From Candidatus Omnitrophota bacterium (GTDB lineage Bacteria; Omnitrophota; Gorgyraeia; Gygaellales; Profunditerraquicolaceae): a DNA stretch of 64,000 nt. The notes beneath the pieces were generated by a model that saw only the letters and a list, made by a program, of their open reading frames with translations, was not told where the DNA came from and did no database searches. The stretch spans positions 4,682-68,681 of the forward strand of contig QZKH01000005.1 of the NCBI GenBank assembly GCA_003598025.1, read 5' to 3'. Made by a program: the position numbers and the translations under genes. Below, in pieces: positions 1 to 42,200 of this stretch (the first letter of the stretch is position 1; each line of letters starts with the position of its first letter).

Positions 1-260
1 GTCCAGCCAGAGCAAAAGCCACAAGGAAAAGTTTTTATTTGGCCGCAAAAGAAAGCGTTTTCCATATACGCTTTAAGTATTTTTGGCATATCAACCCGTT
101 TATTAATTATCGGTGTTACTTTTTCCAGCATGCCTTTTATTGCTCTATTGGCTTCAGTAAGCTTGATACTCAATACTATATATTATGTACGTTTAATCCG
201 TATTTATAACAAAGAATATACAAATTTAAATAGAAATTCCAGTAGCGATAGCGGGAAATC
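1..260 (+). other. Hydrophobic helix segment (AFSIYALSIFGISTRLLIIGVTFSSMPFIALLASVSLILNTIYYV), probably the C-terminal transmembrane end of the preceding module, followed by the first SSSP linker at about 262-275
   Basis: Direct translation of frame 1. Two consecutive hydrophobic stretches of about 20 aa are followed by KSSSPISNSPFENNSPSLPP. Confidence 0.4.
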
Positions 261-18200: not shown

Positions 18201-21200
18201 AGCTGATTGGTTGTTAGAGAGAGCAAGAGTTGCTTTAGAAGCTAATGATTTCAATACCGCAAGGCAGAATATACGGGCAGTTTTTGATTTCTATCCTGGA
18301 TCTAAGAAGGCAGCTGAATTACTTAAAGAATACGAAATTGAGAAAAGCATGTATTACCACCGGAAAATAATGGCAGAAAAAATGCTGGTCGGTGAACTTA
18401 AGCCATGGCGTGAGCGTGTAATAGATGACGAAGGCAATGTTTATATTTACCTCCATCAGGATAATGGCAGGCAAACCCAGGGGATCGCGCTTAATTTTGC
18501 TCTTATACCAGACTTGTCAGTTGGTTCAACATTGCAAATAGTGCCTATTGTTTCCCAGGAAGCGTCTTATAGCCGAGTTTCAGTATTAGTTTATAAGGAT
18601 ATGACTGCAGAAGAAATTGCAATAGGGGTATCTCCATTAAGAACCTGGAGCTACGATCTTGAATCTGATAACCTTAGAATAATAGGTGATGGCACGGATC
18701 TGCATATGAAACTGAGAGAAATTGACTCTGCCAAGTTATCCGTAGCTAATACTATGGCTGCAATAGGCAGGATAAGGGGTGAAAATTTTAATGGGGTTTA
18801 TCGGAGACTTTCCGGGCAGGTAGAACAGGTATTATTGCTAATATCAAATGATGCTTCCAAAGAGACAGCTTGTGCATATATGTTCGGCCTCATAGATAAA
18901 GCAAAAAGGAGGTACTCTTCCAGCAGGGTATTGCATGTTCTTCTGGATAGCATATTATATGACCATTTCCTTTATGATGAAGACTCCATTAGAGAACCCG
19001 AAGAAGAACAGCTGAAGGCGCTAAGCAAGAAGCAAATGAAAGAGTTAATGGAGTTTGGCGTCAGCTCTTCTCCCATTGATAATAAAGGCGAATTTTCAAC
19101 CCGGGTTACTGTAATTGCAGATGCTGTAAAGGCCTGGTCTAAAGAAATGTTAAGTATATTCTACTGGGTTTGTTTTGAGCATGCCGGATTGTTATATTCG
19201 GCCTTTTCGGTTAGTAAGCTTGTCCAGGTTAGTGGCGCAACTTTAAGGGTCATAAGGTCGGATTTGGGTAAGCCCTATGTCCATTATTATGTGGTTATAT
19301 CGTGGCCTGAATCTAGCGGTTATTTAGTTGATATTTTTCCTGAAGGTAACAGCAGATTAGATCATCTTAACCACGAAGAAGATAAAAGAAGGTTATTTAC
19401 AGAAAACGGAGCATTGGTCATTCCTCTATCTGAATCTGAAATAATAGAAGAGGGTTTTGGCAGGCCCTCTGATATGGAGATAGTCTATTCTTTAAATGAT
19501 TCAGAAGAGTCTATTGACCCGGAGTTTATTATTTATTTGGGTGAGGCCAGAAGATCGCTGGGAGACTTATGGAGTTTTAACAGAATAGAAGATGAGCATA
19601 TCGGAAGGAGTATCCTTCGTGAAACAGGGTTATCTCATGAGATAGGAAGGAGAAAATTCGTATCAAGCCCTATTATGCCTATTGGAGGAGTATCTTATGA
19701 AGGAGCCGGCCATAACCGCCCTATAGACCTTGGAAATAATTTGTATAGGCTTGTTAATATTAAGAAGCCAAGAGAAATAGTGGTTACATTAGAAAGGTCA
19801 AAAGATGAGGATGTAATCAATCTTAATGAAGCAGTTATTTCGGCTGTTGTAGCATATTTATCCGGGTTGATTGAGGAAGATGTTAGGTCCCGCAGGCTCG
19901 GTGCCGAATTGACTGCAAGGATCAGGTTGCAGAAAGAAAGAATAGAAAAGTTGCGTTCAATACAGCCCGTTTCAGGGTCCGCCCCTTCTTTGACAGCTAC
20001 TGAAACCGGTAAATCTTCATTTAGCATGGTTTTAAATAGTGAGATTACTAAAAGGAGAGGCAGAAATACCTCTTCTCCTATTAATCTGGATGAAAGGCTA
20101 AACAGCCGGATAGTAGACATGCTTTCTGCGGGATTGAGGCCCGAGTCTACACTTGTTATTACGCATGTAGGCAGGCATCCAGATTATGGCGAGGTGGCAG
20201 ATAGGATCATATCCGGCGTGGATAAGCTTTACCAAAACCAGAAAATAGATAGTAGGTTAGTATTATTTTCAAATACGCTTACTTCTCCCTACCCGGGAGG
20301 TTATCATTCCGATGGAGGTGTATTGGCTCCTGATGCTAAAATAGAAGTAAGCGGATCAGGCGACGTATTCGTCATTGCCGGATCAACCGTGGGCGCATGC
20401 CATTTAATAACTTACCAGGAGATAGTAGATATTGTTGCCTCAAGGCACAATACAAGGGCTGTGATTTTTATACCTTTGGAGGCAACGGACAGGACAATCA
20501 ATCCTACCGCAACGGATGAAGCCTATTCCATGTATCTTGCATCAAATATTAGTATAGGCGGATATGAGGTCTTTGATTTTGTTAATCAGCATTTTATCCC
20601 AGGCCCGGGGCAGACACCGGAAATAATATTAGTATGGGTAAAAACATCTCAGGAGGCAATAGAATGGATAGGCCGGATTAAAGAATTATCACAATCGATT
20701 GAACGGGCATCTGTTCTCCTGGGCGCAGTTTCTCAATTTAAGCATGATGTCAATAACCGTCTGACAGCCATAGTGGGCAATATTGATATGGATTTGCTTG
20801 ATGCCGGTATTCAGGAGTCATCTATGAAGGGTAAGCTCAAGCAATTGATAGATAGTGTTCGGGTTTCATTTATAACTATCCCTAAAGGGAATACGCAAAT
20901 TGTTGACATTACGCAGGCAGTATCCATTATTTGGCTATGCCAGTGTTTTATAAGCGAACTTCTGGCCTGGTCGAAAGATACTGATGAAGATGCGATCTTT
21001 GAGGGATTACCATTAAGAAAAGACCAGTTTTCTCCCAGACGTTTTGGTTATGTACGCAGAGAAATAGGAGTCATTAAGAAGATGATAGATGTGCTTAAGC
21101 GCGCCGGTGAAAGCAGCCCTTCCATCATAAATAGAGAAAGAATTGATATAGGCAGGATTATTAAAGAAGAGCTTGAACATATTGAAGGCATGAGGAAAAT

Positions 21201-24200
21201 AATCTCTGAATCCGAGCCAGGGTTGTTTGTTTGGGGTGATGAACTGTTATTAAGGAATATTTTACTGAATTTATTTGTTAATGCCAGACAGGCAATGGCT
21301 TCTTTGATAGAAGTGAAGGTAGGCAGGGTAGAGGCTTCCGGAGAGATAGATATAACTATTCAAGATAACGGCCCCGGGATACCGGAAGAAGATATTCCTC
21401 TTGTATTTGATTTATTTTTTACCACTAAGGTTGACGGTAGCGGCATGGGGTTATATATGGCTAAGAAAGCAACAGAGGCAATGGGTGGAAAAATTTCAGT
21501 TCAGTCTGACCATGGCTCAAGATTCAACATCCGTTTAAACGCAGCATCTTCTCCTTTGGAAAGATTTGGATTTAGTGCGCATGCAATCAACGGCCCCCCG
21601 GCTTTATTTACCGGTTCTGTTCTAAACCCGCATCAAGCAATTCATTCCAGGGGGGCAGTTCTCCGATTACCCGGAGAAACGGTCCTGTCTTCAAGCCCGG
21701 TTAAATATAAAATCGTGGTACATGAATTTACAAGACTTAATGATAATCAGCCTCTTCTTACTCCCAGAGACGGAGTCTATTGGGAAAAGGGAGGGGTTTT
21801 GAATCCTGCTGTTGTAATACGCGATGTAAAAGGGCTAGATGGCAATATCCATTTTATTTATCGCGCTGATGAGGGCGGTTTGCATCCAAGCGGCAGCCTT
21901 GGCTATGCCAGATTTAAGTTTGATGAAGCGCAAAGAAACCTTATCTTGGTTGACAGGTGGGATAAGCCGATAATGTCATGCCATGACCACCAGTGGTGGG
22001 AAGACCCCAGGGCATTTATTTTAAGCGGGGCTTTATATGTCAGCTCTACGCATTGCCAGATCTTTCCAAACAATAACATAGTTACCGAAGGTTGCATCTC
22101 ACACGAAATGAATTTCAATCACGCAGTAAGAAGCCGAAATTTCAGATGGTTAAACAGGTACGTAATAACAGGCAATAAGAAGAAATTTGATAAAGATGTA
22201 GTCCTTTGCCCTCGGAAAGTAAATATACACGGCAGCCAATATTGGGCTGCTTATAATCGTCCATGGCCGGATATAGGGGTAATAGTTTCTCCAAGCGCCT
22301 TTGGCCCGTGGTTCAGGTTCAAGGAACGGGTAATGTCTCCCAGGCAAGGGGATTCTCATATAGGCGCAGGCTCAAATATGGTAGAAATTAAATTTAATCA
22401 TCAACATATGTATTTATTCTTCATACATAGTGTCTTTTATAGGGATAAGGCTGCTGATACCAGGACATATTACGGGAAAGCCGTTCTTGCCCAGGCTGAC
22501 AGGCCATGGGAAATAATTGATGAAACTGATGGCATCGTATATCCGGAATTAGAATGGGAGAAAAATGGCCTTGGCGGTAAATTAGACTGTATTTTTATTA
22601 CCAGCTTTGCTCCTACCTACAGGAGAGGAGCGCGCGTAAAGGGGATAGTTGGCTATGGGGCGGCTGATAAGTATGTAGGTGCTGCCTATGTTGATTTAGA
22701 AATTATCAGGGACGGTTCTCAAAACAAGGCAGAACCGTCCCTGAATGAAAATGCTTCTAGTCCGCTTACTATAGATGATATACAGCGATATTCGGATTCT
22801 GCCGTGAAATGGAGAACCGCAAAATCTATAAGGTATATCGGCGGGTTATTCAGGGATTCATTTTCACCGAAAAGGAGAGAAATAATCCATACGGCCCTTC
22901 TTTCCTTGCTGAAAAATGAGCATCGCGTAGCTTTAAATGAAGTGTTAAAAATAATAGGCATGGAGCAGCAAGATAGAGAGGTGATTTTGGCTGGCCACGA
23001 GTATGGAGTGCATGCAGTCAGGGATATAATCATGAGCCGTGAATTCAGCATTGAGATAAGATTGCGTGCGTTAATGTTTATCTCTGCTTGGTTAAAGGAT
23101 TCAGAGGATAATTTTAGGGAAGAAGCGGTGAACAGTTTTTCGGTTGTTGAATTAAAAGATTTCCTCAACCGTTTAAGAAATAAAAGCATGCTTAAGAGAA
23201 AGCTGGAATCCGGGTTGCCGCTAAGATTTTCTGATGATGTATTAAGGCTGGGTTATGCGGCTGTAGCGCTATTTATTTACCATAAAGGAGCGGGTATTTC
23301 CCTGGCTACACTTTTTGAAATACTGCATAGGATTTTTATAAACGCCAGGATTTCTCCCGGGTATGAAGATGCTAACTCAGGGTTTAATTTCGGAGGCAGG
23401 TTTGCAAGAAAACATTCAGGAGGAGTAGCAATCGGGACCTGCGCTCATGAAATCATGCATAATATATTGTCAATCGAGACAAAACTGGATTCATATGAGA
23501 ATAAAGATGTAGCATCAATTCATGAGTTTATGAGCGATGTAATGGCTTTTGCTTTCTATAGATGGGTTTATTGGCCTATGGAGATAGCAAAAGAACTGGA
23601 ATCTTTCCATTTTGTTGAGCACCTTAATAGCTGCCCTAATTTTATAGCCGCTGAACAGCACCAGGCTGCCCGTGCCCAGCTAAAGATAATTATTGATGAG
23701 TGCTCCGGATACGAGAATGTTGATTGGCCGCTTCTTTTAACAGCAGGGATTACCGTTTTAAGAGGCTGGATAGGCGGAAGCTTTAGTCTTTTTACAGAAC
23801 GAGTTTTACACACATATTTTTTAAATCTGCGGCAAGCCCCCGGGGATAGGCCTGGAGAAGGTCCCGGTTATGGCCTAGTGACAGAAAACTTGTTAGGTTT
23901 GCCTGCCGGAGCCAGCAGTAAAGTTGCCACCAAAATCTTATTGTTGCCTAATTCAGGAGTACGCCGTATCCTGCAAGTTTATAGCATTGGAGCATCATCT
24001 CCCCTGGATTCATCAAATATCATATTGGAAATAGATTCTAGGGCACTCTGCGCTACTTACGGCGGGACTATAAAAGATGTCCCGCAGGCATTCTGGGATT
24101 GGCTTAGTTCTTTAGGTGTAGGCGTAATATGGTTTAAAGGCGTGTGGAGGAAAAGCCCTCTTTCACACCGATTGATGAGGATCTGGGGCAGAAGGCACGG

Positions 24201-27200
24201 GGAAACATTAAAGCGTTGGGCAAGCGCATATGATGTTTATGATTATGAACTTGATCCGGATATCTCTGCTACCGATGATGAGTTTATAAGAGTTGTATCA
24301 ATGTTTAAAGATAGAGGTATAAGGGTAATACTTGATTTTGTCACTAATCATATTGCTTTTGATTCTCCTCTTGTAGAAAGAGTTGAGGGATTAGCCTTAG
24401 CGAACCGTAACATTTCGGCATATGAGAATACGGAGATATGGCTTGATAATGCTTTAAGAGGCGCCTCACAGCCGATTAATCATCCGATATCATATATATA
24501 CCATGCCCGTGTAGGCGAACCCGGGTACAATCCGCCGATGATGAACCTAGCTCAGATTAATTATATGGATAAGAGAGCCAGGGAATATATGATCAAGACC
24601 GTCCTTCATAAAATTGCAAAATTAACATTAGGTGGTGGCTTGCGCGCTGATCTGGCATTCTTGGCTTTCAGATATAATATTTATGATACCTGGGGCAAAC
24701 CTTATGGTATGAGCTGGGAATATTTTGAGCGACAAATGCCGAATGAATTCTGGAGAGAATTTATGGATGAAGTTAATGCTGAATATCCAGGTATGCTGGT
24801 AGTCGCTGAGAGCTATGAATTCGGTGATAAAGAAGGCTGCCCTTGGGAAGGAAGGGCCGGTGCGTTTACCAGGTTAGGCATGATCCCTTACGAGAAACAC
24901 GCATATGACCTTCTTCGGCTTGGTTATGCCGATTCATTCAGAGGGTATACTTTTGTAAATTCTCCAACTGATTTCATGCATTCAACCGTTCATTTCGTTG
25001 AGAATCATGATGAGCCGGCTGCCGTAGAAGCTTTTGGGCATATGAAAAAGGCTTTAGCTGCTTCAATAATTTCAGCAGGATTACCGGGCTATTTCCTTAT
25101 ACCTTTAAGACAGGTGCTAAATATGACCGGATATGGCGTTGTAAAGGAAATGAAGTCAGCTGATGCCGGTATCTATGAATATAAATATCCGCATATTAAC
25201 GAAATACTTAAAGAGCGATTAAGCATACCGGGGTTGGCATGGTTTTTGGGATTCTTAGGAAGAAGATCTTATGGTAACGGAGAATTCTTTAGCGCTTATC
25301 TTGCTAAAATAGAGAGAATGGTGCCTGAAGGATGCCTGAAGTTAAGCCCGGAAGCTACCAGGGAACAGGTTTTGGAAGCAACCGGCTGGAGAGAGGATTC
25401 CAGGGGCAGGGTATGGGAAGATGTTAGCATTAACAACAGTGGGATTATATCTTTTATAAGGCATACACCGCAAGCCGACCTGCTTGTTGTAGTAAATTAT
25501 TCAGGAGAGCATTTTGATTTAATGATCAACAGAGATTCAGCGTTTTCATATTATAACGATAATGAGAATGCGCCGAAGAGTTTGCTTCCTAATTTAGGGG
25601 ATGCAACAGGATTATGCGAATATATTTATGACGATAAAACGGGAAGCTTGGAATTAGAACTCCCTGCCTGGGGTTACGCACTAATTGAATTTACATCTTC
25701 CTCGCCCTTAAATCCAGATAAAATATTGTTTGGGAAATCTAATGTTGAAAGATTAGCTGCCGATTTTGATGAGGACCCCGGTATTATAGAAGGTGACTTA
25801 AGAGCAATTAGCGAGGCCTTAGGTATATCCGGTTTAAAGAATGAGGCGCTAAGTTATCTTGATAGCGGAATGCAAGTTGATATTGATTCAATGGACTTAA
25901 CTGCGTTAGAAGCGTTTGCGCAAAGGACTCATAAACGGGTTTACAAGGTTAGTTTTGATGTTTATCCCAAAGGTCACTCTTTTGAAATGTTATTAAAAAT
26001 TGTTAAAGAGAAGGTCAGGAATACCATGTCGGGGGTTCCGTATGATATGAATTTCATTAATCGAGTGCACCTTGTCGGAGAAAGAATCCGTTCTTCCAGG
26101 GAATGGCTGCATCCACGTTCGGGAGAGCCGATAGAATGCCGCAATAGCAAGCCGAGAATATTATTTACCGAGGAATTAATCCGCTCTCAGGCAACAGGCT
26201 TAACTACCCAGCTTTGCCGTGCGCTAAAAGTCGCTTCTTACATATCTTTATGGGAGATACTTGGCCATAAAGGATTTGTCCTGGACCCAAATGAGTCTAA
26301 TGCCGTTATAAGAATCCATCAGGGGCATCCTGTGGCTACCATAATTGATTTAGACGGGCTTTCAGAGAGCGAAGGCGGAGTTAATGAATTAGAGGTAATT
26401 GACAGCCTGTATGATGAAGGAGATATGGCCTTTGAGCCTATGGCCCTAGGGATTATCCACGCTTTAGGCAGAGAAGGCGCGGTGCAGTTTTTTGGAAACC
26501 TGAAGGACCAGATAATATCAGTACCAAAATCAAGGTTAGCTTTTCTATTTAAAATATTTGAAGAGGGTATTCAAAATCAACCCACCTTATCTTCTTCTCC
26601 GGTAAGCCCTGAGTCTGAAGCTACTATCAGGGCATTTGTGGCTGGCCAAGAAAGAGCCGACTGTTTCTTCCGGTTTACAAGAGAGATTTTGGCTAACAGA
26701 TTATCTTTAAGAGATGTAGTTTCATCCAACGCATTACGTCAGGGTGTGGCAGATTATCATCTTGACCAGATAGGTTATTTGGGAGACGAAAGAGCGCTTA
26801 TCCTGAGGGTTAACGGCGAGTTTTTTGCAGTAAGGTTATCCGGAATAAATAACACCGATGAGATTGAGCCCGTTGTAGCTATTAACAGCGGGGATTTAAT
26901 ATTGCAAGTACTTTCCCGCGAAGATTTTCTTAAGTTATGGAGTAAGGCTACTGGCTTGGATCCAAGTATTTATAACACCGATAGCTCGATATATGTTTTT
27001 ATGCAGGCATTGGTTAGCAATGTACCTGTTAACGGCCATGGTTTAAAGCTGACGATAGAAGATGTTTTAGGCCAGGGGCTTGAAGGCACGGTATTTTTGG
27101 CTAGGGATTTAAACACAGGCAGAAAATTTGCTTTAAAAGTCGCATACAAAGATTTACGCCGGATGTATGAGTTCTGGGCAGATAAATTTGATATTTTGGA

Positions 27201-30200
27201 AAGAGAAGCAGCACATCTTTTAAACCACCTTGTGAGATTTCATTCGTGTGAATTTCATGCTGAGTTTGGCTCTTCGCTGCTCATGGAATACGTTGATCCG
27301 TATTCTTCCATTGAAGATCATATTAAAGCCTTAAACCCGCAGGATAGGCTTAAAGAGGGCTTAAAGATTCTAGGGGAGTCTAGCAGGGTCGTTTCGTCCT
27401 TACATGGTTTTGAAGCGCCGGTTGGAGATATAGGCCTGCCTAATACTCTGGTTACCGGTTTAGACAGGAGAGGGCCTGTTAAGCTTATCGATCCTTTCCC
27501 CGCTGCAATAGAATCACCTGAACAATATAAACGGCAAGACATCTTTCAACTCATGCATATGCTTTATTGGCTGGTTACTGGCATTGTTTGGCCCAATGGT
27601 ACCTATGAGTACAGGAAAAAGGTCATGGCTGGAGAGTATGACCCTGAAGAAGGCAGAAGAATATTTTCATCCCTCCCGCTTTTAAATAACCGGGAATATG
27701 AATCACTGCATAGTATTGCTGTTAATGCCTTATCAGGGACATGGGACAAATATATAGAAGGCATTAATGCGTTAGAGGATATTGCCGCATCGTCTCCCAT
27801 AACTATAGCCAGGACGATACCGGGATGTTCTATTGCTGAAGCTCAAGCAGGCAAAGAAATGCAGGCAGCGTTAAGAATGATAGGTAGTGGTATATTTTTG
27901 CCTGTTTACTCATTGCCATCATTCTTTGGCGAACCTAAGCCGGGGCAGAGAGAATATGGTATAGGGGATTTAGGCGATGCCGCAAAAGAATTCGTTCTCT
28001 TGCTTGCCCAGGCAGGCCAGAGGTATTGGCAGATATCACCGCTTAATCCAACAGACGGGAATAATTGTTCATACCGCACGGATAGCGTTTTTGCACTTGA
28101 TTATAAGATCGTTCCTCCGGGCAGCCTTTTAAGAGATGGTTGGATAACAGAGGAGGAGCTTGATTCGGTACTCCCTAAGCTGGAGCCCGCTAACAGGATT
28201 GCTCTTCCAAGAGGACAGCTTGAATATAAACAGAAACTTTTGTCTTTTGCGTTTGAAAGATATTTAAGAGATAAATTATATAGAGAAGAATTTAATCAAT
28301 TTATGGAAGAGGAAGATTACTGGCTGCAAGATTATGTTTTATATAAGGCAATAGAAGCCGAGAATCCCGGGAGATGGGTGTCCTGGCCGGAGGAATTAAA
28401 ACAGAAAAGGGCACAGGCTACGGTAGAATTCCGTAATAAAAACAAAAATGAAGTTCTGCGTTATGGGTTCTATCAGTATCTTTTGCAAAAATATTTGGAT
28501 GAACTTGTGGATTTTGCTGAAGCGCACGGAGTATATATTATCTCCGATTTACCCGCTTATTCTATGCACGGCAGTTGCGATGTTTGGGCTAATCGCGATG
28601 TGTTTGTGCTTGATAAGAATGGCCAGAGGACATTAGTTGCCGGTGCGCCGGCTGATGCATTTAAAGGAGGAGATGGCCAGGCCTGGAACCATCCTATGTA
28701 CAGATGGGATAGTAAGCGCACGATGGATTTCTGGATTCAGAAATATAGAAGAATGAAACGCCTATATAAAAACGGTTTTGTGCGGGCAGACCACATAATA
28801 GGCCAGATTACTCCCTGGGGTTATAAATTTGGTACACCTGCAAAATACGGATGGAGAGTCAGCGGCCAGTATCTAGCAAAGGTATTTTTTGACAGGCTTA
28901 GAGAGATATTCCCTGACCTTGAGCGCTTTTTAATCGGAGAAGACCTGGGCATTATCACCGAGGAAACAAAGGAATTGATGAGCCATTACGGCTTCATGGG
29001 AATGAGGATATTCCAATTTATGCCGTTTAATAATTCTGAATCAGAAGTGGATAATGATTGGAATAATCCTGCAAATTATTCAAGAAGAAACGTTTTGTAT
29101 ATGGGTACCCATGATTTACCTCTTATCAGGCAATGGTGGAGGCATAGGTTGAGCGGAGAAGGAAGGGCGCGCCTTAATCATTTTTTCAACGACTTTGTAG
29201 ATGACGCAAATGTCGCTTCAAAGGTGGTCAGTTTTATTATGGGGCAGAACACAAATATAACCGTTCTCTCCTTGCCGGATATCATAATTGATGAAGGAGT
29301 TATGGGGTTACTTGATGGGCAGATAAATGATCCTGAAGCCAAAGATGGAAATTGGTCGTGGCGTTTGTTGCCGCAGTTATTTAATGATGTTACGAGGAAG
29401 AGTCTTTTGTCTCTGACAGAAGGGTCTTATAGAACACCGGCAAATGTAATATTCAGGCTTAATGCGCTTTCTCCGTCTTCAGCAGAGGTTATGTTAGCAG
29501 AAGAGGTGCTTAAAGGCTACGCTGACAGCGCTTCGGCCAGCAAGCTTATTGAATTATCTGCGAATGGACTGATAAGAATAGGTGATATTAAAGGAATGCT
29601 TTCTGTAATATATGAACATAACAACGGGAAAAAATTTATCATATTGTCCGATAATAAAGATAGCCAGCGTCATCTGTCTGTTGAAGAAAGGGCAGTAAGT
29701 TTAATCAGGGCTATAGAGCGATATGATGAAACAGGCAGTGTTTCTTCGCCCTTAGAGATTTCCAATGAGGATTTATTGAGCTCTGCTAAAGAAGCTGTTT
29801 TAAGATTTGAATCAAGCTTAAGAGTTTTGTCTGAAATCAGCCCTCAATATCTCCGTGAGCAGATGGTTGCTTTTATGGGCGTATTGCTTGATCCTAAAAT
29901 TAAGATTGAAATATTAGAACCTACCTTAAGAGCCCGGCTTACGAGGCTTGGGATAGAACAACAAGAGAGAGTTGCTTATAGAGAAAGTCTTTATGCACAC
30001 TGGAGAGACTTGTGGATACATTATGAGCGCGCGGGTTATTCCAGGAGAAGAATTATTAAAGGCATTATTGAGGGCGAATTCCCTGAAGCCAGGGGGTTAT
30101 TGAAAGAAATACGCTGGTTGCTACTTAGTGCTTTTGCCGAAGAGTTGAAGATATTAGAGAGTGATAGTGCAAATATTACCAATGCGGTAAATTGTTGGGT

Positions 30201-33200
30201 CGATATTTTGAGCGGCGTTGAGATTGAGAAGCTGCTTTTTGGATTTGGTTTAAACAGTTTTATGTTGGGTAGTTTGAGTGGCCAGGGCATATCCGGCTTG
30301 TTGGCCACTAAAGCCAAAGCAGAAAGAGTTGGGGTAGATACATTTTCTTATAAAGAGCGCGGAGATTTCATTAATTATGCTCAGTGGCTGACAGGTTCGG
30401 CCGGCAGAAAATCAGCTGAGCTAGACAGGATTTCTGAAATATTAAGGCATATCAATCAAATTAGTGATGCCGAGGATAGGGACGACAGATTGATGTATTT
30501 ACTTTCCGCCATGGAGGATAAGTTATTACAAAGGCTTGCAGTTATGCATGCACCGATAATCAGGGACCCGTTGTATCCTTCGTCTGTAGATATGCATCTG
30601 CATTCAGCATATTCTGACTGCGCTTCGGACTCAGTCGCGCATATGGTCTATGAAGCTTATCGCCGGGGATTAAAGACAATCGCTATCAGCGATCATCAGA
30701 GTTTTGATGGGGTGATGAAGGCGTTAGCTATCGGAGAGTTATTCGGTGTCAAGGTTATCCCAGCCGTTGAACTTTACACAGGTGTTTATAGAAACGGAAG
30801 TGTCCAGGAAAGAAGGGATATATTGGTTTATTTCCCCGATGTCGATAATTTTAAGAGTTGGTATGAAGGCGGGTTTGATGATAAAACAAGGGAGATATTC
30901 AGCGATGGATGGGATAGGCATAAGGATCAGTGTTTGTGGGGTAATGTTGACGTGCATAGGGTAGTTGCCTGGGCAAAGGAGCATGGCGGCATACCGGTTT
31001 TAGCCCATCCCGGAAAATGGCATAGAGAAGTTTATGAGACTAGCTCATGGCCATACAGGGACTTTGAAGAGTTATTTATTGATACAGGGCTTTTAGGCAT
31101 AGAAATCAGCCATCCATTTATCCCTGCAGAGAAAACTATATTTTATCTGGATATGATAAGGAAATTTAACAGACTGCACCCGGAATCGCCGCTTATTTTC
31201 ACCGTAGGGACCGATGCGCATAACACCTATAATATAGGTAAAGGAAATATGTCTTTAACTGTAGTCAATATGATTAGCCGGTATCTAAGAGATAATCCTT
31301 CTCTGGTAAATCCGTTTTTGGGGGATATAAACCAGGTTCACTCAAGCTCACCGATACTTACTGATTCAGTCAGAGCGCAAGATGTATTAAGGGCATTTAG
31401 CCTGGGGCCGGATCATGCCAGTTTAGAACTATTAAAGTTTTTTGACGGACAATTAACTAGTAGATTGACAAGAGCTGAGAGAAGGGATTTGCTTAAAGCC
31501 TGGGAAAAAATATTAGTTTCTTACCCGGAGCAAATTATTAGCACCAGAAGGCATGCTTTACGGACAGCTTTAATTGCCATCTTTATTGCCAGGCATCTTC
31601 CGTTGACAAGAGAGAGCCTTATTGACTTAGTCACTGCTGCGCTTGCTCATGATTTAGGCAAGGGTTATGATAGTGAGATGATAGAAGTGGTTAACAAAAG
31701 ACGCAGGCTTAACGAAGATGAATATGCAATCATAATCAGCCATGTGAATAAATCCTTCAAAGTTTTGGGCAGGAAGAAGATAAGAATATCGGATTCTGCC
31801 GCCAAGGCAATATCAAGGCACCATCCGCGCTATTTAGAGAAAAGAGAAAGATTCAGGGTTATTGATTGGGTCTTGCATGTAGCTGATGAGATTGATGCGC
31901 GCCAGGATATGAGCCGGCCATGGAGAATAACCAAGAGAAAACTGCGCAGCTGGAACCCCGAAATGATACTTAATAATATCTCCGGTTTGAGCCTGCCGGG
32001 TAACATTTATATGGCGGTTGCGGCTTTAGTGCTGAACAGGGATAAAGAATATATCGCAGTCATAAGCGATACTTACCGTTGGTGGCAATATCTTTTACTA
32101 AAATATTATTATCTGTCTGGGTTAAGCTGGTTAAGAAGGATCTTCGGCAGGAAAATCATCGAAATCGGGATGAAATCTGGTGAAGACGAGGAAGATGTTA
32201 GTGCTTCTTCTCCAGTTAAGGATGGGATAAGTGAGACAATGCTCATATCGGGAAAATCAAAATTAGGTAGGCTTAAGTTTCTACCATTAGATGAAGAGGA
32301 GAAAACGGATGCTTTAAGAGGTTTAAGCTTGGTATTACCGGCCGTATTTGATGGAGGGAGGCATTTTCTTAAAATATCGCTTCGCAGAGAAGTTGGCGGG
32401 CGCGAAATAAATATATTACGAGAGCTTTATAGGTATGAATCGTTAAGGAATCATCTTCCTGATCGTTTTTATTCCGGGATACTTGATAGAGAAAGCAGGA
32501 GGGTCGTTTCCCGGTTTATGGATTACAACATAGTATTACAAGCCAAAACGGGATTTATTTTATTAAGCAAGGCCAGAGGTCTTGATTTATGGGAAGACCA
32601 GGAGAATATTTATGGAAGAGATGACTTAGATGCCAGGTCTAAAGAGCAGATGGTTCTGCAGCGCTTAATAAACATCGCAATGGCATTAGGCGATTTTCAT
32701 TCAAAGGGTGTTTTCCATAGGGACTTGTCAGAAGAAGAGGTATTTATAGATCCAGCCACCGGAGGCGTAAGTTTTATTGATTTTAATATAGCCGTGACAC
32801 CGGCTATAGGCATTGAATCATTAAAAGCTTTAGGTCTTGAGCAAACGGCTAAGTATAAAAATGGTAAACTTATTGATCCGAATTGGGACAGCCAAAAAAG
32901 AGATATAGCTCAATTGGCATTAATTGCTAAATCTTACTCCTATTTATTGCCAGCTGATTCTTTAGCCCGTCAGCGATTATATAGTTTATTTGGTATCGTT
33001 GCAGAAGAAAACTTTAATATCCCCGGTTTCATTGGGTTATTGCAGGCAATTAGTCGGTCCGTTTCTCCATCTCCTCAGGGACCGTTTCTGTCACTGACCA
33101 GAGAAGTGCCCCCTGAAGCCAGTTCTCCTGTAAGTGCCCCAAGCTATAGAATGACAAAAGAAGAAATTGATGCCTATACTGCTGGTTACGGCCAAAGGTT

Positions 33201-36200
33201 AGCAGAAGTACGCAGCTTACAAAAACTTTCTAAAGAAGAATTGAGTTTTCTGCTGAAAGAGAAAATAGAACCCTGGCAGTTAACCAGGTGGGAGCATGAA
33301 GCTGCGCCACCTCCGGCATTTCTATTAGAGCCTTTAGCTGAGATGTTAGGGGTTTCGGCAGGATATATCAGGGAGGGGGAAGGTCAAATCGACCGGGAAG
33401 CGTTAGAGGAAAGAGGCAGGCGCCATTTAAGGATTAAGAAAGTAAGAGAGTTATTCGGGTTGACTCTTGCAGAAGCAAGCCGTATTGCTAAATATAGAAA
33501 TTACGCATATTTAATGCGTATTGAGGGGGGCGGTACCTTCCCGCGTTACAGCGTTCTATTGGACATGATCAATAAAATATTCGACAGAGAAGTAAGCGCC
33601 CAGTATTTGATGATCGGGACTGATGAGCCTGATTGGTCAATGGTGGGGGTTGTTGATGGCTGGGCAGATAGGATTACTAATGTAATGAAAAAACTTGGTT
33701 TCTCGCAGGATAGCATTACTCGGGAAACCGGAATTGATGAAGGAAGATTTCGCAGGATTATAAGGGGGATAACCAGGCCGGCGATAACAGAGTTAAGAGA
33801 TTGCGCAACCATTATGGGCATTACACCAACATATCTAATAAAAGGTACAGATGAGCCTGACTGGCATTACGGCAGGAGAATAAAAAGCCTGATGGATAAC
33901 TATGGATGGAGTGCTCCAAGGCTTGCGAGAAGACTTAAGGTCAGCTCAACAACGGTTTATGCCTGGATTCATGAAAAATTCCCGCCTAGCTTCGGGCAGG
34001 CAGTTATTATCGCCGGATTATTTGGAGTAAGACCGGAATATATATTAACCGGAATAAACCCTCCGGAAATAAAAGTTAAAGAAGGCTATGGTGATAGGAT
34101 TGCCAAGGCAAGAAAAAAACAGGGATATTCTCAAGCATATGTCGCCTTGTTAGCCGATATGAATCATCTTACATTCTTTAAGCTTGAAAATGAAAGTTAT
34201 GGTATGTCCGTACGAATAGGTCTACTTAAGCGAGTCGCAAAGGCATTGGGCGTAGACAGCCAATATGTTTGCCTTGATTTAAACCCTCCTGATTGGGATA
34301 AATTCGGCGTAACAAGTGGCTATGGTAAAAGGATCAGAAAGGTGAGGGAAGCGCTAAGGATGACTATGCCTGATTTAGCCGCAGAAATGGATGTTTCAGC
34401 AGAGAAGATCTTAAAATGGGAACAGGAGCGCCTTGAATGGCCTAACCATAATGTGATCGCTGAGTTTGCCCAAGCACTCTATGTGCCTGTAGAATACTTG
34501 AAAAACGGTTCCTGGAGAAGCGCATATAAGGATTTTGGTATAAGCCCAGGATGGGGGGAGAGGATCCGTTCCTATAGAGAATTAAAAGGCTTATCAGAAG
34601 ATGATTTGGCCGATAGGCTGGGAGTAGATGTTTATACAGTACAGAGATGGGAATCAGAAAAAGTTAATACCCCATACTCCAGGTTTAAAGCAATGGCAGA
34701 GATATTTGGCATACCCGTAATTCTTCTTATTCATCACACTGCCCATAAAAAGAATTTTCAGTCAGTTTCTGACAAAATATTATTACTAAAACTATACGGA
34801 ATAAGATTGAATTCCGCTCTCTTAAATACGAGCAACGATGAAATAAATGAGTATATTGATAAACAAGTCGTAGATTTATTAAATGACGGTAATGGCAGGC
34901 TCGAGAGCATGATACTTGGGCCCCTGTTTAAAGAGCCGTCAGTTGATATCTTCAGCGATCGTTCAGTGGCTTACCGTGTACTTATGCGCTCTGTCGCCGT
35001 TGATCCGGGGTTGATTCATGTGAAAATTAAAGATTTGCTTAGCGGCAGGAATGGACGGCTTTTAACCGGGAGAAAGCTTTTTTTCTTTCTTGGGCAACCA
35101 GCGGGAGAAGCTTTCTTGGCTGCTTTGAATTCACGCGGATACTCCTTGGACAGTGATTTGGATAGAATAAAATCCGAACACAAGGCATCATCGCCATTAT
35201 CGAGGGTTGCAGGGACCGCAAAATTCAGAAGAACATTGACAAAGTTGGAATTACCGGCAATCGTTGCTATTGACGGTTCAAGCAGTGTCGGTAAGACTAC
35301 CTTTTCCCGTAGTATAGAAAGAGGAGAAATAGACCTCGGCATAAATAACAGAATTTTAGTGATACACGGAGATGTGTGGGATAGCATAGCAAGAGATGCT
35401 TTATACTACAGGTTGGATTATCCGATAGCGAAACAATATAGGCCTATAGAAGAGTTATATAGAGCAGGATTGATAGATGATCGTACCCAAAGAGGGGATT
35501 TATTCCGCATGTTTTTTGATGCAGGGTATGAACAATTATTTTCCGTTCATAATATTGTTATTTTTGAAGTGGCAGGGGCAGTGAGCTTAATAAATGATGC
35601 TCTTTTGCATCATCCATTTGTATTCTTGCCCGCGAGGATTTTAACTTTTCGCATGAGCAAGGATGATAACGGGCGCAGGAGCATTGTCAAGAACGGCAGC
35701 TTTGAATCTATTGCTTACCGAAGGCTGAAGAAATACGGCCCTGCCGGGCTTGAGATATTAAAGCATAAGCGGTGTATAAGCTCGCCTTTAGATGCAGAAC
35801 CTGCGTTAAGAAAAAATAAGCATCATAGCCATGAACATAGTCTTTATCATACACATATACATACTGACCACTTGGGTAGATTGCGTTTTATCTTTGCTAT
35901 AACTTTTGGTTTTGCCTGGGTTGAGCTTTTTACAGGGATTATTTCAGGTTCGGTAGCCCTAACCGGAGATGCAGGGCATATGTTTACGGATGCGATGGGC
36001 ATAGGCGCAGCTTTGTTTGCCCATTGGGCAAATGCCTGGAGCAAGCCTCCTCCGAAAAAATACAATGGCAATACAATTTACGAAGTATCCGCAGCATTCC
36101 TAAATGGCATCACAGTACTAACAGCCTCATTTTATATCGGATACGAAGGTATCCGCAGGCTTCTGGGGCACCCGGCAGACCACCTTACCTACGAAATATT

Positions 36201-39200
36201 CATAATCGCTACATTAGGCTTATTAGTGAATACGGTTTCTGCAATAACCTTGCATTCCGGAAGAAATCATAATCTCAATTTTAGGGGAGCTTATAAACAT
36301 ATTGTCGCAGATATTGCCGGCTCTTTAGCTGCGATGATTGGAGGTCTGTTTATTTGGATTTCTGGAACATATAAAGTAGATGCCATATTGGGGATGGCGG
36401 TTGGCATCTGGATTTTTTATGGTTCTCTCGGGCTTTTAAGAGAATCTTTATCCGCAATAAGATATGTAAATAGTAAAGAGGAGGAAGAAAGTGTATCAAG
36501 CCCTGCTAACTCCGATAGCAGGTTAAGAGATGACAAGCTGAGTTCTCTCAGCAATATAATAAAAGAAGGCCGTATATTTGAAACCGACAGGATTTGGAGT
36601 AGCCTGCCTGCAACTTCCAATGATTCTATAAGGCAGGTTATGTTGCTGCAAGAAGATAGCCAGGGCGGTATTACAGTTACAGCCAGGAACGAAGATGGGC
36701 TTTTATTAGGTTATGTTGTAGGTGTTCCGGAAACAGTAAGATGGGGCGGCAGCTATGGCAGGGATAATGTTTTTTATCTTTATTCCTTATCTGTCCGCGA
36801 TGATTATTCGGGAAGAGGTATAGGGACTGCTTTATTAGGGCATATTTTAAGCCTTGCCAAAGACAAAGGGTTTTTAACAGCTACCGGAACTGTTGAGGGC
36901 AAGAACAGATTAGAGAGCGGAGCCGAACATATATTAACCGATAAATTTGGCGCCCGCCAGGTTGATTCAAAAGGCCTAAATCCTTTAGAAAGATACTGTT
37001 CATTAATGCTTGGTTTGCCGCAACAAGATGATGTTGAGTTGGAGATATCGCTTGCCAAAGACTCGCAGTGGTGGAGTTTAGTCAGTTCGCCATTAGGCAA
37101 ATTAGGAAGCAGGAGAAACCCAGTTGCTTTAACTTCGGGAAAAAGCGCCGTAGTAATTCTTCCTACTTATGAAGCAGACCATAATAAATATTTTTATAGG
37201 CCGGGGCATTCGGTTGCGATTGAGATTATCTCTCCTCTGGAAAGAGCAGGCTATAAAGTTAATACTATTGAAGTAAGTTCTTTAAATGAAGGGCTTGCGG
37301 CAATTCTAGCGCATAGTAAAGATGAGATCGATTTGTTTGTTTTGGCTATACATAGGTCTTTTGTCACCCCTGAGTTAATATATCAATTTCTAGACATTGC
37401 CAAGACAAGATTGAAGGATAAACCTACGGTAATTCTTTATGTTTGCAAAGGAGAAAAAATTGCCAAAGCCGCCAGGAGCATCCTTCATGAAAGCCGTATT
37501 TATTACGATAGAGGTAATATTAACGGGGTGGAGTTGTATTTTTCTCAGGATGGCATGGTTAATGATGTGGTCTTTAATAACACGCGTTCAAGGACGGCAT
37601 TGATTGTATTTGTAACATTGGTGCCTGTTGGCATTTTTGTCTGGGCCCTGGTTAAAGGAAGCCTGGTTTGGATGTTGTTATCAATAATAGGGGGCATTTC
37701 ATTTGCTGTGGCCTTGTGTGCCTGGGGGATGTCAGCCAGTATCAATTACGAAGCTCTGGATGCTCATATCCTTGAACACCAGCGCAAAAATGATGACCAG
37801 AGTAGCTCCCCTGTTACCGCAGCAGCTATGTTTAAAGCAGCGCAGAATTTCCCGGATTTTAGGGAAAGATTTGGATACATAGGTAATGCGTTGATTTATC
37901 TTGTTAATGAAGCCATTAAAAGAGGGTTGATTAAAAGCCAAGCGTCTACTGCACATTTTAAAGTTGCTGAGCGTTTAAAAAATGGTGTTATTGCCTGGAA
38001 TATCCCTGAGCAAGAGATAAGCAGGATTCTTTTTGAGAAAGATTATTTTAATCCTAACTATATAATCAGCCAGATCGTACTTCATGAGTCGCAACCAACA
38101 GAAGCGCAGGGGCTGCAAGCCCAGATAGATACTTTTATCAGTCAGCTGTCCATGGTAGAGCCGGTTAATAGGTTAAGAGGAGTGATAGCGAAAGTTAAGG
38201 CTATTGTATTTGGAGACGGGCATGCTAAATTGCAGGGATTTCGTAATGCCCTTGAGAGAATAAGGTATATTAAAAAAGGCGATTCCTGGCAAGGCGATTC
38301 CTGGCAAGGCGATTCCTGGCAAGATGATTCCTGCTTGGGTGAAAGAACACTTATCCAACTCGGAGATGTTATCTGGGGTGGGATTGGAGAAGAAGCTATC
38401 CAGATAGATTTTTACCATTACCTTAAATCTCTGTCTAATCAGGCACAAAATACTGGGGGTAAGGTGGTAAGAATTCTAGGAAACCACGAGTATGATTTAT
38501 ACGTAGCATATACTAGGGGAGAGGTAAAAGCCCCGGAATTTATTGGTCTTGCCAGAGAAGTAGAGGAAGATATTTTATCAGGGCAAGCTTTGCTGGCAAG
38601 CGAATGTAACGGAAGAATTTTTGTTCATGGCGGAGTATTACCTTATGTGTTAGTGGAGGCTTTTAGGCAAATGAATCCGCATCTTTTGAATCCAGAGATA
38701 GAGTTGAATGAGGCTGCTGAGTATATAGTTAGTAATTTAAGTCAGCATACGGCAAAAAGCATCGCTAAAAAACTGAATGAACTATTGCGTATAAGTGTTG
38801 AGAAGAGAAAACCGAATGCATTGGTGGGATTAGTATTACGTACTCCTTTTGATAACCTCGCTTCAGTGAGTGAAAAATTTCTCATTCCTCAGGTAGTAGG
38901 CCATATCCATCTTAAATCTATAAAACAGAGCCCAGGTGGCAAAGTCATCGATGTGGCTTTATCGGAGACAGATAATTTCTTCGGCCGGTCATATGAGGCG
39001 ATTGGATTTGATGGAGCGGATTGGGGGGTTGTTTCGTTAAACTCTATAAGAGAAGAAAACAGTGTGTTAGTCAGCTCTCCAGTTTATTCAGGAGATCTAG
39101 ATAGCTCTACCTTATCTTTACGTGCCATGGGTGTAACGGCGCTTATTTGGGCTATGGGCCAATTTTTATTTAATACCAAATACGGGATAATGAAAATGCC

Positions 39201-42200
39201 TGGCATTGCTTCATCTCCGGTAAAAAATGTTTCTGCCATAGATGATAATGCAAGAAAGTATTTTTCATTACATATCGATAACGAAGGCAGGATCACCCGG
39301 GCCTTAAGGATTATAAGCGGGATATTTCTGATTTCTATGTTGGCAACCGGGATGATTGATTTAACCATTCATACCAGCAGAACATTTATTCTGCATTATA
39401 GCCTTGTTTTTGGTTTTGCAATGTCCTTAATAGCATATTTTATAGCCAAAAAATCAGATTCGAAACGCATATCCAGAGAGTTGATTGCTCAGAATACAAT
39501 CAATCTTTCAAGTATTGAGGTAAAGAGACTGATTGGAAGGGCCTTAAGGGATAAATTTGACGGAAGTATGAGTTTTGTGATGAATGCAAGTTATATCCAC
39601 CCGTATCCTGTTGAGAGTATTCAAAGCAAGATAAAAAGCCTGGCTTCTTTTATCAGGTATTTTATAAGTCTTACAGAATTCAGGCTTTTCTGCCAGGAAT
39701 ATGAAGGAGAGAGCGATGACTATGGGATCATCCATCTCCCCGATATAACATTGGGAGCTAATGAATCTCAATTCCTTCCGTCGGGAAGGCTGAAGAAAAT
39801 AGAGATTGCTGATGCAACTTGGCCTGAAGTCAAAAGCGAATGGATTGTATTGTTACGAACTGAAGTTTTACCGCGGCTTAAACAGATATGGCTGAGTTTG
39901 CAAAGAATCCAAGGGCTGCCTGAGAATAGCGAACAGATCTGCCACAATATAAGCCTGATAAACTCGTTAAGCCAGGAAGTCGGCGATGAGATAGGAAGAT
40001 TAGCCAGGAGGTATTCAGAGATAAGAAGGCGCCAAGGAGCGAGTTCTCCGATACCCGGATGGGATAGGGTAATAAGGATAGCCAGGGCAATAGCTCCATC
40101 TTTATCTTCTAAGCCTGCTATTGTTGTCAGCAGGCAGGAAGAAGAACCCATGGAGGAACCAAGTGGAGAAGTGCAGAACCCGGAACCGCCGCCTACCATA
40201 ATAAATAAGGAAGAAGAGAGAAGAAGGATAGCCACGAAAGTAGCCAAAATTGTGTTTGGGCTTATAGATAATTGTTGGTTTGAAATAGCGGTTTTAGACC
40301 AGTCAGGCCCGTGCGCAGCGCTAATGAATTACAACGCAGCCGGTTTTCAGCAGATGGATGTATGGTCTAATGAAAACGACTGGACAATAAAAATTGCAAA
40401 AGAAGTTCAGTTGAGAAACAAAACAAAGTCAACTGAGATCAGGTCTTTTGAGATGGATTGGAATTCGGCTGATAAAACTCTGACAATTACTAATACTTTC
40501 GGAAGGAAACAAAAGAAAACTTTTAAGTTTTCCAAAGACCCTCTTTGCAGGCTGGATTTCTCTGCGCGTAAGAATAAGCTAAGTGTGGTTTTTTCAGCGC
40601 AAGCAGCCAGGGCTATAAATAATTCAGGCTTAAGCCTATCGGCTTTATACAGCGAAAGCGATAATTTCGGTTTAGAAATCAAAACTTCCAATAGCTCTAA
40701 CCATAATACAGCCAGCAGCCCTCTAGATAATAATTCAAATGCGGGCAGCATGCCAAACAGTAGATTTTATTATTATCCAGTTACAATACGTCCGGTGGAT
40801 AAATACAATAAATTTAATCCTGCCAAGGTTAAAGTTACATTTATTTCTGGAGAAGCTTATCTTGAAGTTATAGAAAGGGGCGATTTAAGCATAGAAGGGG
40901 AAGCGATATTAAAGCAAAGATTGCGGGATATGCTTGTGTATAGGCCAAATGCTCCTCCTGCGGAAATATTGATTACCCCGGAGACTTCTATTATTGAGAG
41001 GCGCAGAGTGATTGCAGAGTACGATTCTGAAACAAGGGAAATACTATTACAACCATTATTTGTGGATAAAGATGAAGAAATCATTAGTTTATTTAATATT
41101 ACCCCGCCGTACGCTCCTAAGCTACCCGATATCCTATATTTTACTAGTACAGGTTTTGATAATCTTAGGATGGAGACTATAAATTTGTTCAATGTCAACC
41201 CTTTGCAGGCCAGCCAGTTTCTAATGTCTGTCTTAAGAACCGAGTTTGGTTATCTTATTGGTTTAGATTGGGGAGAGGGTGAAATTGATACTTTGGGGTG
41301 GTTACAATCACCAAATAATTTAGATTACCTGGAAGTTAGCATAACGATACTCAGAACTCGTAGAGAAGTATTGGCTGTTGGGGATTGGTTAAATAAATTA
41401 TTGCTAATGCGTTTATCCCAAGAAGCAATCGGATTATTCCCGGTTTTTCCGATACAAGAACGAGGATCTCATATTGTTAATGGCAGCATATTAATGGGGC
41501 CAGTGGAGGGCGTTGATTATATAGATGATAATTGGACAGGCCTATTATGGGATACAGATAAGCGGATAAAACCCGAAGAATTAGATAGGATGATAACCGA
41601 AGTACTTGGCGTATTTGGTTTTAATATGTTGCAGGAAGATAATAGATTAGTGCAATCTATAACCAGGATAAGGTCGTATTTTACAGAGCGGATTAACTGT
41701 TTAGATAATGCTTTAATGTTGAGCTTATCGGAGATTGCCAATGCTTTACAGGATCCTGAGAGATTCGTAGATGTTCTACTAATAGAATTTGTATTTTTTC
41801 CATTATTTCTTCAGAGGGAGAAAATCGGAGATTGGGAGCATTATTGTCGAGATTTTGGTACTAGGCTAGATTCAGGATCTTGCTATGAGCTTTCTATCCA
41901 GAGAACAGCATTCTCGGTCTATAGCCAATTTTTCCATTCCCGAGAACAATTAGGTGGCTTTGTTACTGATTTTGCTCAAAGCATTAGAAATGATCCTAAT
42001 TTAAGAATGAAGCTGGATAGTATAGATAAATTTACTGATTATGTAGCAGGGTTTGCGGTTTTGCCGAAATGTATCGTGTTGGATTGCGACGGTGTATTAT
42101 GGAGTGGGACGATAGATGAAGACGGTATTTATGGTGTAAAAGTAACCCCAGCCCATCAGGCTTTTCAGAGGAAAATACTTGAATTGAAAGAGAGCGGAAT

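Follow-up and report, generated by a model that had tools for sequence, protein, structure and literature searches.

In the 64,000 nucleotides (nt) of contig QZKH01000005.1 (Candidatus Omnitrophota, assembly GCA_003598025.1) analysed here, hereafter the window, which cover 64 kb of a longer gene, a short linker cassette recurs at three distant junctions between the modules of one giant open reading frame (ORF). The cassette repeats at the level of DNA, is peculiar to this gene and is located in unconstrained Pro/Ser-rich spacers between modules; judged from its codons, it is conserved as DNA and not as a peptide. With a probability of roughly one half, it is the footprint of short-tract DNA copying between these unconstrained linkers, probably tied to module rearrangement. 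The junctions themselves are defined not by the cassette but by the protein motif [S/A]SSP[L/I/V], and two junction layers are separated here, a rare cassette at the DNA level and a universal delimiter at the protein level.

Cassette copies within a giant ORF

Frame +1 of the window has 21,333 codons, no stop codon and two open ends; each of the remaining five frames has from 695 to 2044 stops. The pattern GACCGTTTCTGYCACTGACCAGAGAAGTGCCCCCT matches this ORF exactly at 33080-33114 and 46673-46707, with one mismatch between these two 35-nt copies, and has no match in 100 dinucleotide-preserving shuffles. The 35-nt repeat reported in the initial annotation is therefore real and its first copy correctly placed, although the second copy lies one base lower than given there and the two copies really share 63 nt (33056-33118 and 46649-46711), with 56 of the 63 positions (89%) identical. 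The encoded peptide is RSVS[P/L][S/A]PQ[G/R]PFL[S/P]LTREVPP[E/G]. The third copy is also real and, as described, more diverged, but it is shorter; its core, at 55990-56019, has 27 of its 30 nt in common with copy 1 (28 of 35 over the full length originally assigned).

An SSP tripeptide is located within 1-3 codons of every cassette copy, consistent with the reported proximity of the cassette to SSP junctions. Copy 1 forms the C-terminal end of a weakly kinase-like module (weak Pkinase/Kdo matches), just upstream of the SSP encoded at 33121-33129. Copies 2 and 3 are instead 10 nt downstream of an SSP, at 46630-46638 and 55972-55980, respectively. Copy 2 follows an FkbH/HAD-IIIC-like module (m44) and precedes a module with hydrophobic segments, and copy 3 is followed, from nt 56065, by a twin-arginine-like signal, SRRAFF. 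As direct repeats, the copies bracket module blocks of 13.5 kb (copies 1 and 2) and 9.3 kb (copies 2 and 3).

The labels originally given to the three downstream modules hold in part. The helix-turn-helix (HTH) array after copy 1 is confirmed by Pfam. The module after copy 2 has 3-4 hydrophobic segments, in agreement with its designation as membrane-like, but its protease label is unsupported, no protease domain having been found in it by Pfam; the sequence HEMAGH (47686-47703) was rejected as a zincin metalloprotease motif, being HExxxH and not HExxH, and the AlphaFold2 model of this module is of low confidence (predicted local distance difference test score, pLDDT, 48.6). After copy 3, the twin-arginine-like signal is followed by a stretch resembling an alpha/beta hydrolase, with no Pfam match.

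The cassette is rare. A profile of the three cassette peptides finds three sites at the 63 SSP junctions of the ORF and no further copy in the six frames of the window. Parts of the cassette do recur in other arrangements. A 15-mer at the 3'-end of copy 1 is also present immediately 5' to the core of copy 3 (Table 1), where it is read in a different codon phase, VPPEAS (3' to the core) in copy 1 and SPLKPG (5' to the core) in copy 3. There is also an internal 12-nt direct repeat, GGWCCGTTTCTS, that is read in two phases. The best minus-strand match of all three copies is at 21646-21693; its Smith-Waterman score of 32 against copy 2 exceeds the scores in 40 codon shuffles (mean 23.8, standard deviation 1.8, maximum 28) and its scores against copies 1 and 3 are not above this null. 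We regard it, from this score, as a tentative inverted partial copy.

Conservation as DNA

Copies 1 and 2 share 16 of 22 residues and, at 15 of these 16 positions, the codon is identical, as compared with 5.0 expected from the codon usage of the gene (P<5e-6). Copy 1 and the core of copy 3 have identical codons for 7 of their 9 shared residues, with 2.9 expected (P about 0.005). Codon identity so far beyond the needs of peptide selection points to conservation of the cassette at the level of DNA. Copies 1 and 2 have different residues at 5 of the 22 positions, and their 63 nt contain 7 nucleotide differences, spread over 5 codons, all residue-changing and none purely synonymous, as expected of a young, weakly constrained copy. 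The 15-mer that is permuted and in the other codon phase is likewise not explicable by peptide selection and so indicates a rearrangement at the nucleotide level.

Flanking modules and base composition

The homology between copies has sharp edges and unrelated flanks. Self-BLASTP of all SSP-delimited modules links m32 and m45 through the 22-residue cassette alone and, when copies 1 and 2 are aligned as DNA, similarity falls to background within a few bases of both edges. The flanking modules differ in kind, with a weakly kinase-like module and the HTH array at copy 1, FkbH-like sequences and hydrophobic segments at copy 2, and TPR-containing and hydrolase-like modules at copy 3. Together with the 15 identical codons in 16, the unrelated flanks support the earlier proposal that a short junction segment was copied at the nucleotide level, and they agree with its dismissal of segmental duplication. 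A larger duplication, of which the cassette would be the remnant after divergence of the module bodies beyond recognition, could call on the presence of diverged paralogues in the gene, namely two HATPase_c modules and the FkbH/HAD-IIIC-like modules m42 and m44 (~40720-46640; residues 13575-15546), which are 49% identical over 364 residues. With 89-97% nucleotide identity in the cassette, however, duplicated flanks should have remained recognizable, and this explanation is extremely improbable.

Deviant GC content had been proposed as a mark of recent arrival for modules next to the cassette. There are GC steps at cassettes 1 and 3, in the 93rd-98th percentile of all positions. Of 47 modules, the one following copy 3 has the highest GC content (z +3.1), and no other 13.5 kb of the window is as AT-rich as the block between copies 1 and 2; the m42/m44 pair is located in the most AT-rich part of the window. 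These GC steps, at two of the three copies, weakly favour a link with module rearrangement or turnover.

Distribution of the cassette and of similar junction repeats

The cassette was not detected outside the window. As DNA, exact or degenerate, it has no match in the genome, metagenome and viral contig collections searched, in which the source of the window itself is absent, and a three-copy profile gave no match at E<=10 in 5.8 billion proteins. No protein homologues of the region around copy 1 were found. The cassette is absent from three related giant-gene fragments that have the SSP motif (P0133, P0143 and L008) and from 86 related loci with a total length of 920 kb. A search of GTDB genomes for orthologues of residues 10737-12166 returned only an archaeal cation-efflux (cation diffusion facilitator, CDF) gene, and a metagenome scan with a profile of the FkbH module identified 80 loci, the best with 46% identity, with no orthologue and no cassette among them. 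The best relatives of the gene share only single modules, at 46-53% identity. No other module is shared as widely with other giant proteins as the FkbH/HAD-IIIC module; an exhaustive HMMER search (query residues 14669-15868) documented this module in many very long, mostly partial proteins labelled Candidatus Omnitrophota, and its closest long relatives include P0133 and P0143, which carry the same name.

There is an independent analogue in L008, in which a 38-nt direct repeat (3979-4016 and 4750-4787; 95% identical; SP-ALKPEPIT[D/E]N) encloses a single methyltransferase module and has unrelated flanks. The resemblance between SSP-A-LKPEP in this repeat and SSP-LKPGP at copy 3 in the window (13 of 15 nt) may be due to chance. 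Repeats in L006, L009 and L040 were rejected as analogues, as they are inside paralogous modules, and no junction-proximal nucleotide repeats were found in two complete smaller giant genes, P0165 and P0135. Within the window, regions of 90 nt on either side of the SSPs contain ~8 nucleotide repeat pairs versus 0-3 (mean 0.85) in 20 matched control sets. The initial annotation had proposed to test whether linkers belong to a few nucleotide families. These pairs form three small families near SSPs, D1 (the cassette), D7 and D9; the cassette accounts for only 3 of the 63 junctions.

Origin of the cassette

The explanation favoured is that a linker tract of 30-63 nt was copied from one junction to others. 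Copying would have occurred by illegitimate or homology-facilitated recombination, by template switching, or by Campbell-type insertion of module blocks at a linker, and would have left the direct repeats that now bracket the two module blocks, after which the copies would have drifted almost neutrally. We infer from the repeats both how the tract was copied and that the copying was linked with the gain or rearrangement of modules. In itself the cassette is of minor importance, as a young repeat in the spacers of a single gene, and its value is that of a marker. It documents that linkers exchange short DNA tracts while module bodies stay unrelated, as would be seen if recombination at linkers were the way in which modules are gained, lost or moved, and it offers concrete candidate breakpoints at 33056-33118, 46649-46711 and 55976-56019.

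The cassette has partial parallels in other systems. In polyketide and non-ribosomal peptide synthase genes, recombination and gene conversion occur in the linkers between modules and, as in the window, short tracts of high identity are present at module boundaries while the bodies differ, consistent with module exchange. Unlike those paralogous synthase modules, the modules in the window are unrelated enzymes, transporters and regulators, so that conventional gene conversion would have no homologous flanks to act on. The Rickettsia palindromic elements, said to have been described by Ogata and colleagues in 2000, are small repeats that reportedly insert in frame into protein-coding genes. The cassette is similarly a short nucleotide repeat that leaves the reading frame of an ORF intact, with parts of it read in at least two codon phases and perhaps present on both strands, but it is only 30-63 nt long, has no convincing palindrome or hairpin, and has 3-4 copies, all at module junctions of one gene, with none found elsewhere in the collections searched. 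The repeated linker cassette has not been described, but it is of a familiar kind, being one of the young intragenic repeats found at module boundaries.

Several points weigh against origin by short-tract copying. We know of no standard mechanism that copies 63 nt without flanking homology, and no orthologue was found by which the copying could be dated or its direction read. There is no GC step at cassette 2, and the low GC of m44, immediately upstream, is also a feature of its cassette-free paralogue m42. At the level of the protein, nine residues are invariant across all three copies (S.S.....PFL.LT.EV) and two of the three differences between the core of copy 3 and copy 1 are synonymous (CTG to TTG), so that some selection on the cassette peptide is possible.

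The invariant residues and synonymous differences are also the grounds on which the cassette might be considered a selected short linear peptide motif (core PFLxLTxEV) that functions at some junctions in docking or sorting, as a pro-peptide or as the extension of a protease site. If the protein were cleaved at SSP|[LIV], copies 2 and 3 would, moreover, become the N-termini of modules that are membrane-targeted or exported. This is unlikely, given that the motif is at only 3 of 63 junctions, precedes the SSP in copy 1 but follows it in copies 2 and 3, differs in 5 of 22 residues, and nowhere by synonymous change alone, between its two closest copies, and is absent from P0133, P0143, L008 and all proteins searched; the 15-mer in the other codon phase also goes unexplained. 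The proposal in the initial annotation that the peptide is an extended protease recognition site founders on the same observations. As read from the sequence, a role for the cassette as a polyprotein processing site is not supported, as the cassette is absent from most junctions, has no fixed position relative to the SSP and keeps near-identical codons while its residues vary.

Alternatively, the cassette could be an active att-like recombination site or an in-frame miniature mobile element, a tool for adding modules rather than a passive scar. The nucleotide-level identity, the permuted 15-mer and tentative inverted partial copy, the internal direct repeat in two phases, the direct repeats around one module in L008 and the GC steps at two of three copies would all fit such an element. 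There is also, in the same ORF, a repeat of ~130-185 nt with 77-90% identity, designated rA (1962-2146) and rB (11755-11880), with start-to-start spacings of 9734-9793 that are not multiples of 3. The two copies are therefore translated in different frames, both open, which establishes that nucleotide-level elements can reside in the giant ORF. The presence of CCGAGAGG in rA in place of CCTAGAGG in rB avoids an in-frame TAG in rA, and of the two hairpins in the element one carries a compensatory change (CUCUCU/AGAGAG versus CCUUCUU/AAGAAGG). Thus rA/rB may be an embedded mobile or structured element. The cassettes, however, have no clear terminal inverted repeats or target-site duplications; inverted pairing of the ends is weak and confined to copy 2 (z=-1.7), and the strings GCCCC(C)T..AG that flank the cassettes resemble short direct repeats but are degenerate. 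With no recombinase or transposase domain identified in the window by Pfam scans, no copy in the public collections searched and only 3-4 copies visible, an active element is rather unlikely.

Nucleotide-level identity would also be consistent with a cis-acting nucleic acid signal, such as a hairpin or processing site in the RNA, a pause in translation, or a promoter or terminator inside the gene, and copy 2 does contain a weak imperfect palindrome. Copy 1 encodes VPPE and copy 2 VPPG, both able to stall ribosomes and dependent on elongation factor P (EF-P) for efficient translation. The predicted structures are, however, not common to the copies, with fold z values of 0.25, -1.72 and 1.00 for the sense strand and 0.33 and -0.53 for the antisense strand. 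The window contains no Rfam family at the gathering threshold and no tRNA match, its promoter-like sites number 40 versus 41.9 in shuffles, terminator-like sites are likewise not in excess, and no promoter- or terminator-like site overlaps a cassette. Pro-Pro is not enriched (33 versus 28.9) and is lacking in copy 3, and polyproline stalling at the cassette was rejected because Pro-Pro has its expected frequency. The strongly constrained cis element originally put forward is thus not supported and, in any of these forms, such a signal is very improbable. A cis-acting role in RNA and a segmental duplication are both regarded as unlikely. A codon-usage test of the reading frame of linkers was too noisy for use.

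The SSP junction motif

The tripeptide SSP occurs 63 times in the ORF, with 4.6-4.7 occurrences expected, at a median spacing of 272 residues and in the context [S/A]SSP[L/I/V], the next residue being L, I or V in 58 of the 63. These motifs draw on all six codons for Ser and all four for Pro, and the motif is therefore maintained at the protein level. None of the 63 is inside a recognized domain (9.2 expected), and several are 2-40 residues from a domain edge. From this distribution, [S/A]SSP[L/I/V] looks like a protein-level delimiter of modules and a candidate processing site. The motif is also present in P0133, P0143 and L008. The closest long relatives of the FkbH module, P0133 and P0143 among them, are similar to the window in GC content (0.40-0.42 versus 0.416); the window itself contains no marker genes.

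Other giant genes have different motifs at their junctions, which recur at a spacing similar to that of SSP and also vary synonymously. DGG recurs in P0165 (22 times), L011 (14 times) and P0230, DNGG is recurrent in P0121, SGDT in P0125 and ARTAT[T/V] in P0135 (9 times), with RTST in the gene beside P0135. One and the same cation-efflux module has SSP at its borders in the window (residues 11927 and 12166) but DGG in P0165 (residues 3392 and 3608). The giant genes with recurrent motifs of their own are P0165/L005, P0135/L006, P0125, P0121, P0230, L008, L009 and L011, and these motifs include ASSP[A/I] and LFHTR.

Gene-specific junction motifs at the protein level are more notable than the cassette itself, and the SSP motif, rather than the cassette, is the natural candidate for polyprotein processing. 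Short motifs between modules, and the polyprotein-like appearance of the gene, recall the 3C and NIa protease sites of viral polyproteins, with the difference that each giant gene has its own motif (SSP, DGG, RTAT). The analogy fits the SSP tripeptide, as a candidate cleavage site, and not the cassette, which is rare, shifts in position relative to SSP and is conserved as DNA. A combined scheme, in which the cassettes and the 38-nt repeat of L008 would be the scars or sites of dedicated in-frame integration of modules at linkers and the gene-specific motifs ([S/A]SSP[L/I/V], DGG, ARTAT[T/V], RTST, SGDT, DNGG) would serve a bacterial polyprotein system as processing sites, seems decidedly unlikely. 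If dedicated integration does occur, giant Omnitrophota genes would be built from pre-formed modules and the cassettes would mark the most recent insertions.

Modules of the giant ORF and relation to published giant genes

Pfam domains of the giant ORF include two HATPase_c domains, an alpha-amylase, a Pkinase-like domain, a GH77 4-alpha-glucanotransferase, PHP, HD and the HTH_3 array, and also Cation_efflux, GNAT, HAD, nucleotidyltransferase, class I methyltransferase and EamA transporter domains, and long parts of the ORF are without any Pfam match. Giant 'multi-enzyme metabolic cluster' proteins have been described in Omnitrophota of the class Gorgyraeia (West-Roberts et al. 2023, bioRxiv 10.1101/2023.11.21.568195; Nielsen & Lui 2026, bioRxiv 10.64898/2026.06.07.730766), with 'Module 1' domains that comprise PF08241 methyltransferase, PF02518 HATPase_c, PF00583 GNAT, HAD and HD. 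By its domain content, the giant ORF resembles these 'multi-enzyme' giant genes and is polyprotein-like: it is stop-free for more than 21,000 codons, as compared with the minimum of 10,000 residues taken here for such proteins, and has many Pfam families with none dominant, 'Module 1' domains, sugar enzymes and transmembrane segments. The gene class is thus known. The cleavage points of these giant proteins are, in contrast, unknown (West-Roberts et al. 2023), and neither that study nor Nielsen & Lui (2026) makes relevant mention of junction motifs, linkers or cleavage points or describes the linker cassette or the [S/A]SSP[L/I/V] delimiter, the latter being a better candidate than the cassette for those cleavage points. 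A pair of giant genes with 58.6% identity along their full length is reported by Nielsen & Lui (2026).

A homologue of the kinase-like and GH77 module pair (~27000-29750) exists as a stand-alone 1028-residue protein, 49% identical, encoded in an ordinary gene neighbourhood at P0001/L001 (GCA_947258835.1). The SSP at residue 9264 of the window corresponds in position to the interdomain linker of this stand-alone protein.

Other repeats in the window

The features located are listed in Table 1.

Table 1. Positions in the window of the giant ORF, the cassette copies and other junction repeats
Feature	Position	Strand or frame	Basis and remarks
Giant ORF carrying the cassettes	1..63999	+	Stop-free frame +1; Pfam domains of unrelated kinds along its length
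Cassette copy 1, 63 nt, RSVSPSPQGPFLSLTREVPPE	33056..33118	+	Repeat family D1; exact pattern match, alignment
Cassette copy 2, 63 nt, RSVSLAPQRPFLPLTREVPPG	46649..46711	+	Shares 89% of its 63 nt with copy 1
Cassette copy 3, core only, 30 nt, GPFLSLTTEV	55990..56019	+	27 of 30 nt as in copy 1
15-mer GCCCCCTGAAGCCAG	33108..33122	+	3'-end of copy 1; overlaps the last cassette codons and the first Ser codon of the SSP
15-mer GCCCCCTGAAGCCAG	55976..55990	+	Directly 5' of the core of copy 3; all 15 nt match (E=0.006-0.002)
Tentative fourth copy, partial, inverted	21646..21693	-	TGAAGACAGGACCGTTTCTCC...GGAGAACTGCCCCCCTGGA on the minus strand; abuts SSP 21691-21699
D7 repeat	9216-9250 / 22707-22741	same frame	Junction repeat family; 89% identical, 13.5 kb apart
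D9 repeat	58100-58143 / 61505-61548		84% identity; encodes YKGNGSISFDGASSP and YNKGDGSIFSNGASSP

A link between the cassette and D7 through the common string CAGGGAC[C/G]GTT was dropped, the string being short and in a different codon phase. The D7 copy at 22706-22744 contains a perfect 14-bp hairpin, TCAGGGACGGTTCT/AGAACCGTCCCTGA, within the ORF and beside an SSP junction, with a fold z of -5.45. The D9 copies end at two SSPs and enclose a 3.4-kb block with methyltransferase and EamA modules. A tandem 15-nt repeat, AAGGCGATTCCTGGC, present in ~3.9 copies at 38276-38333, encodes GDSWQ repeats within the ORF.

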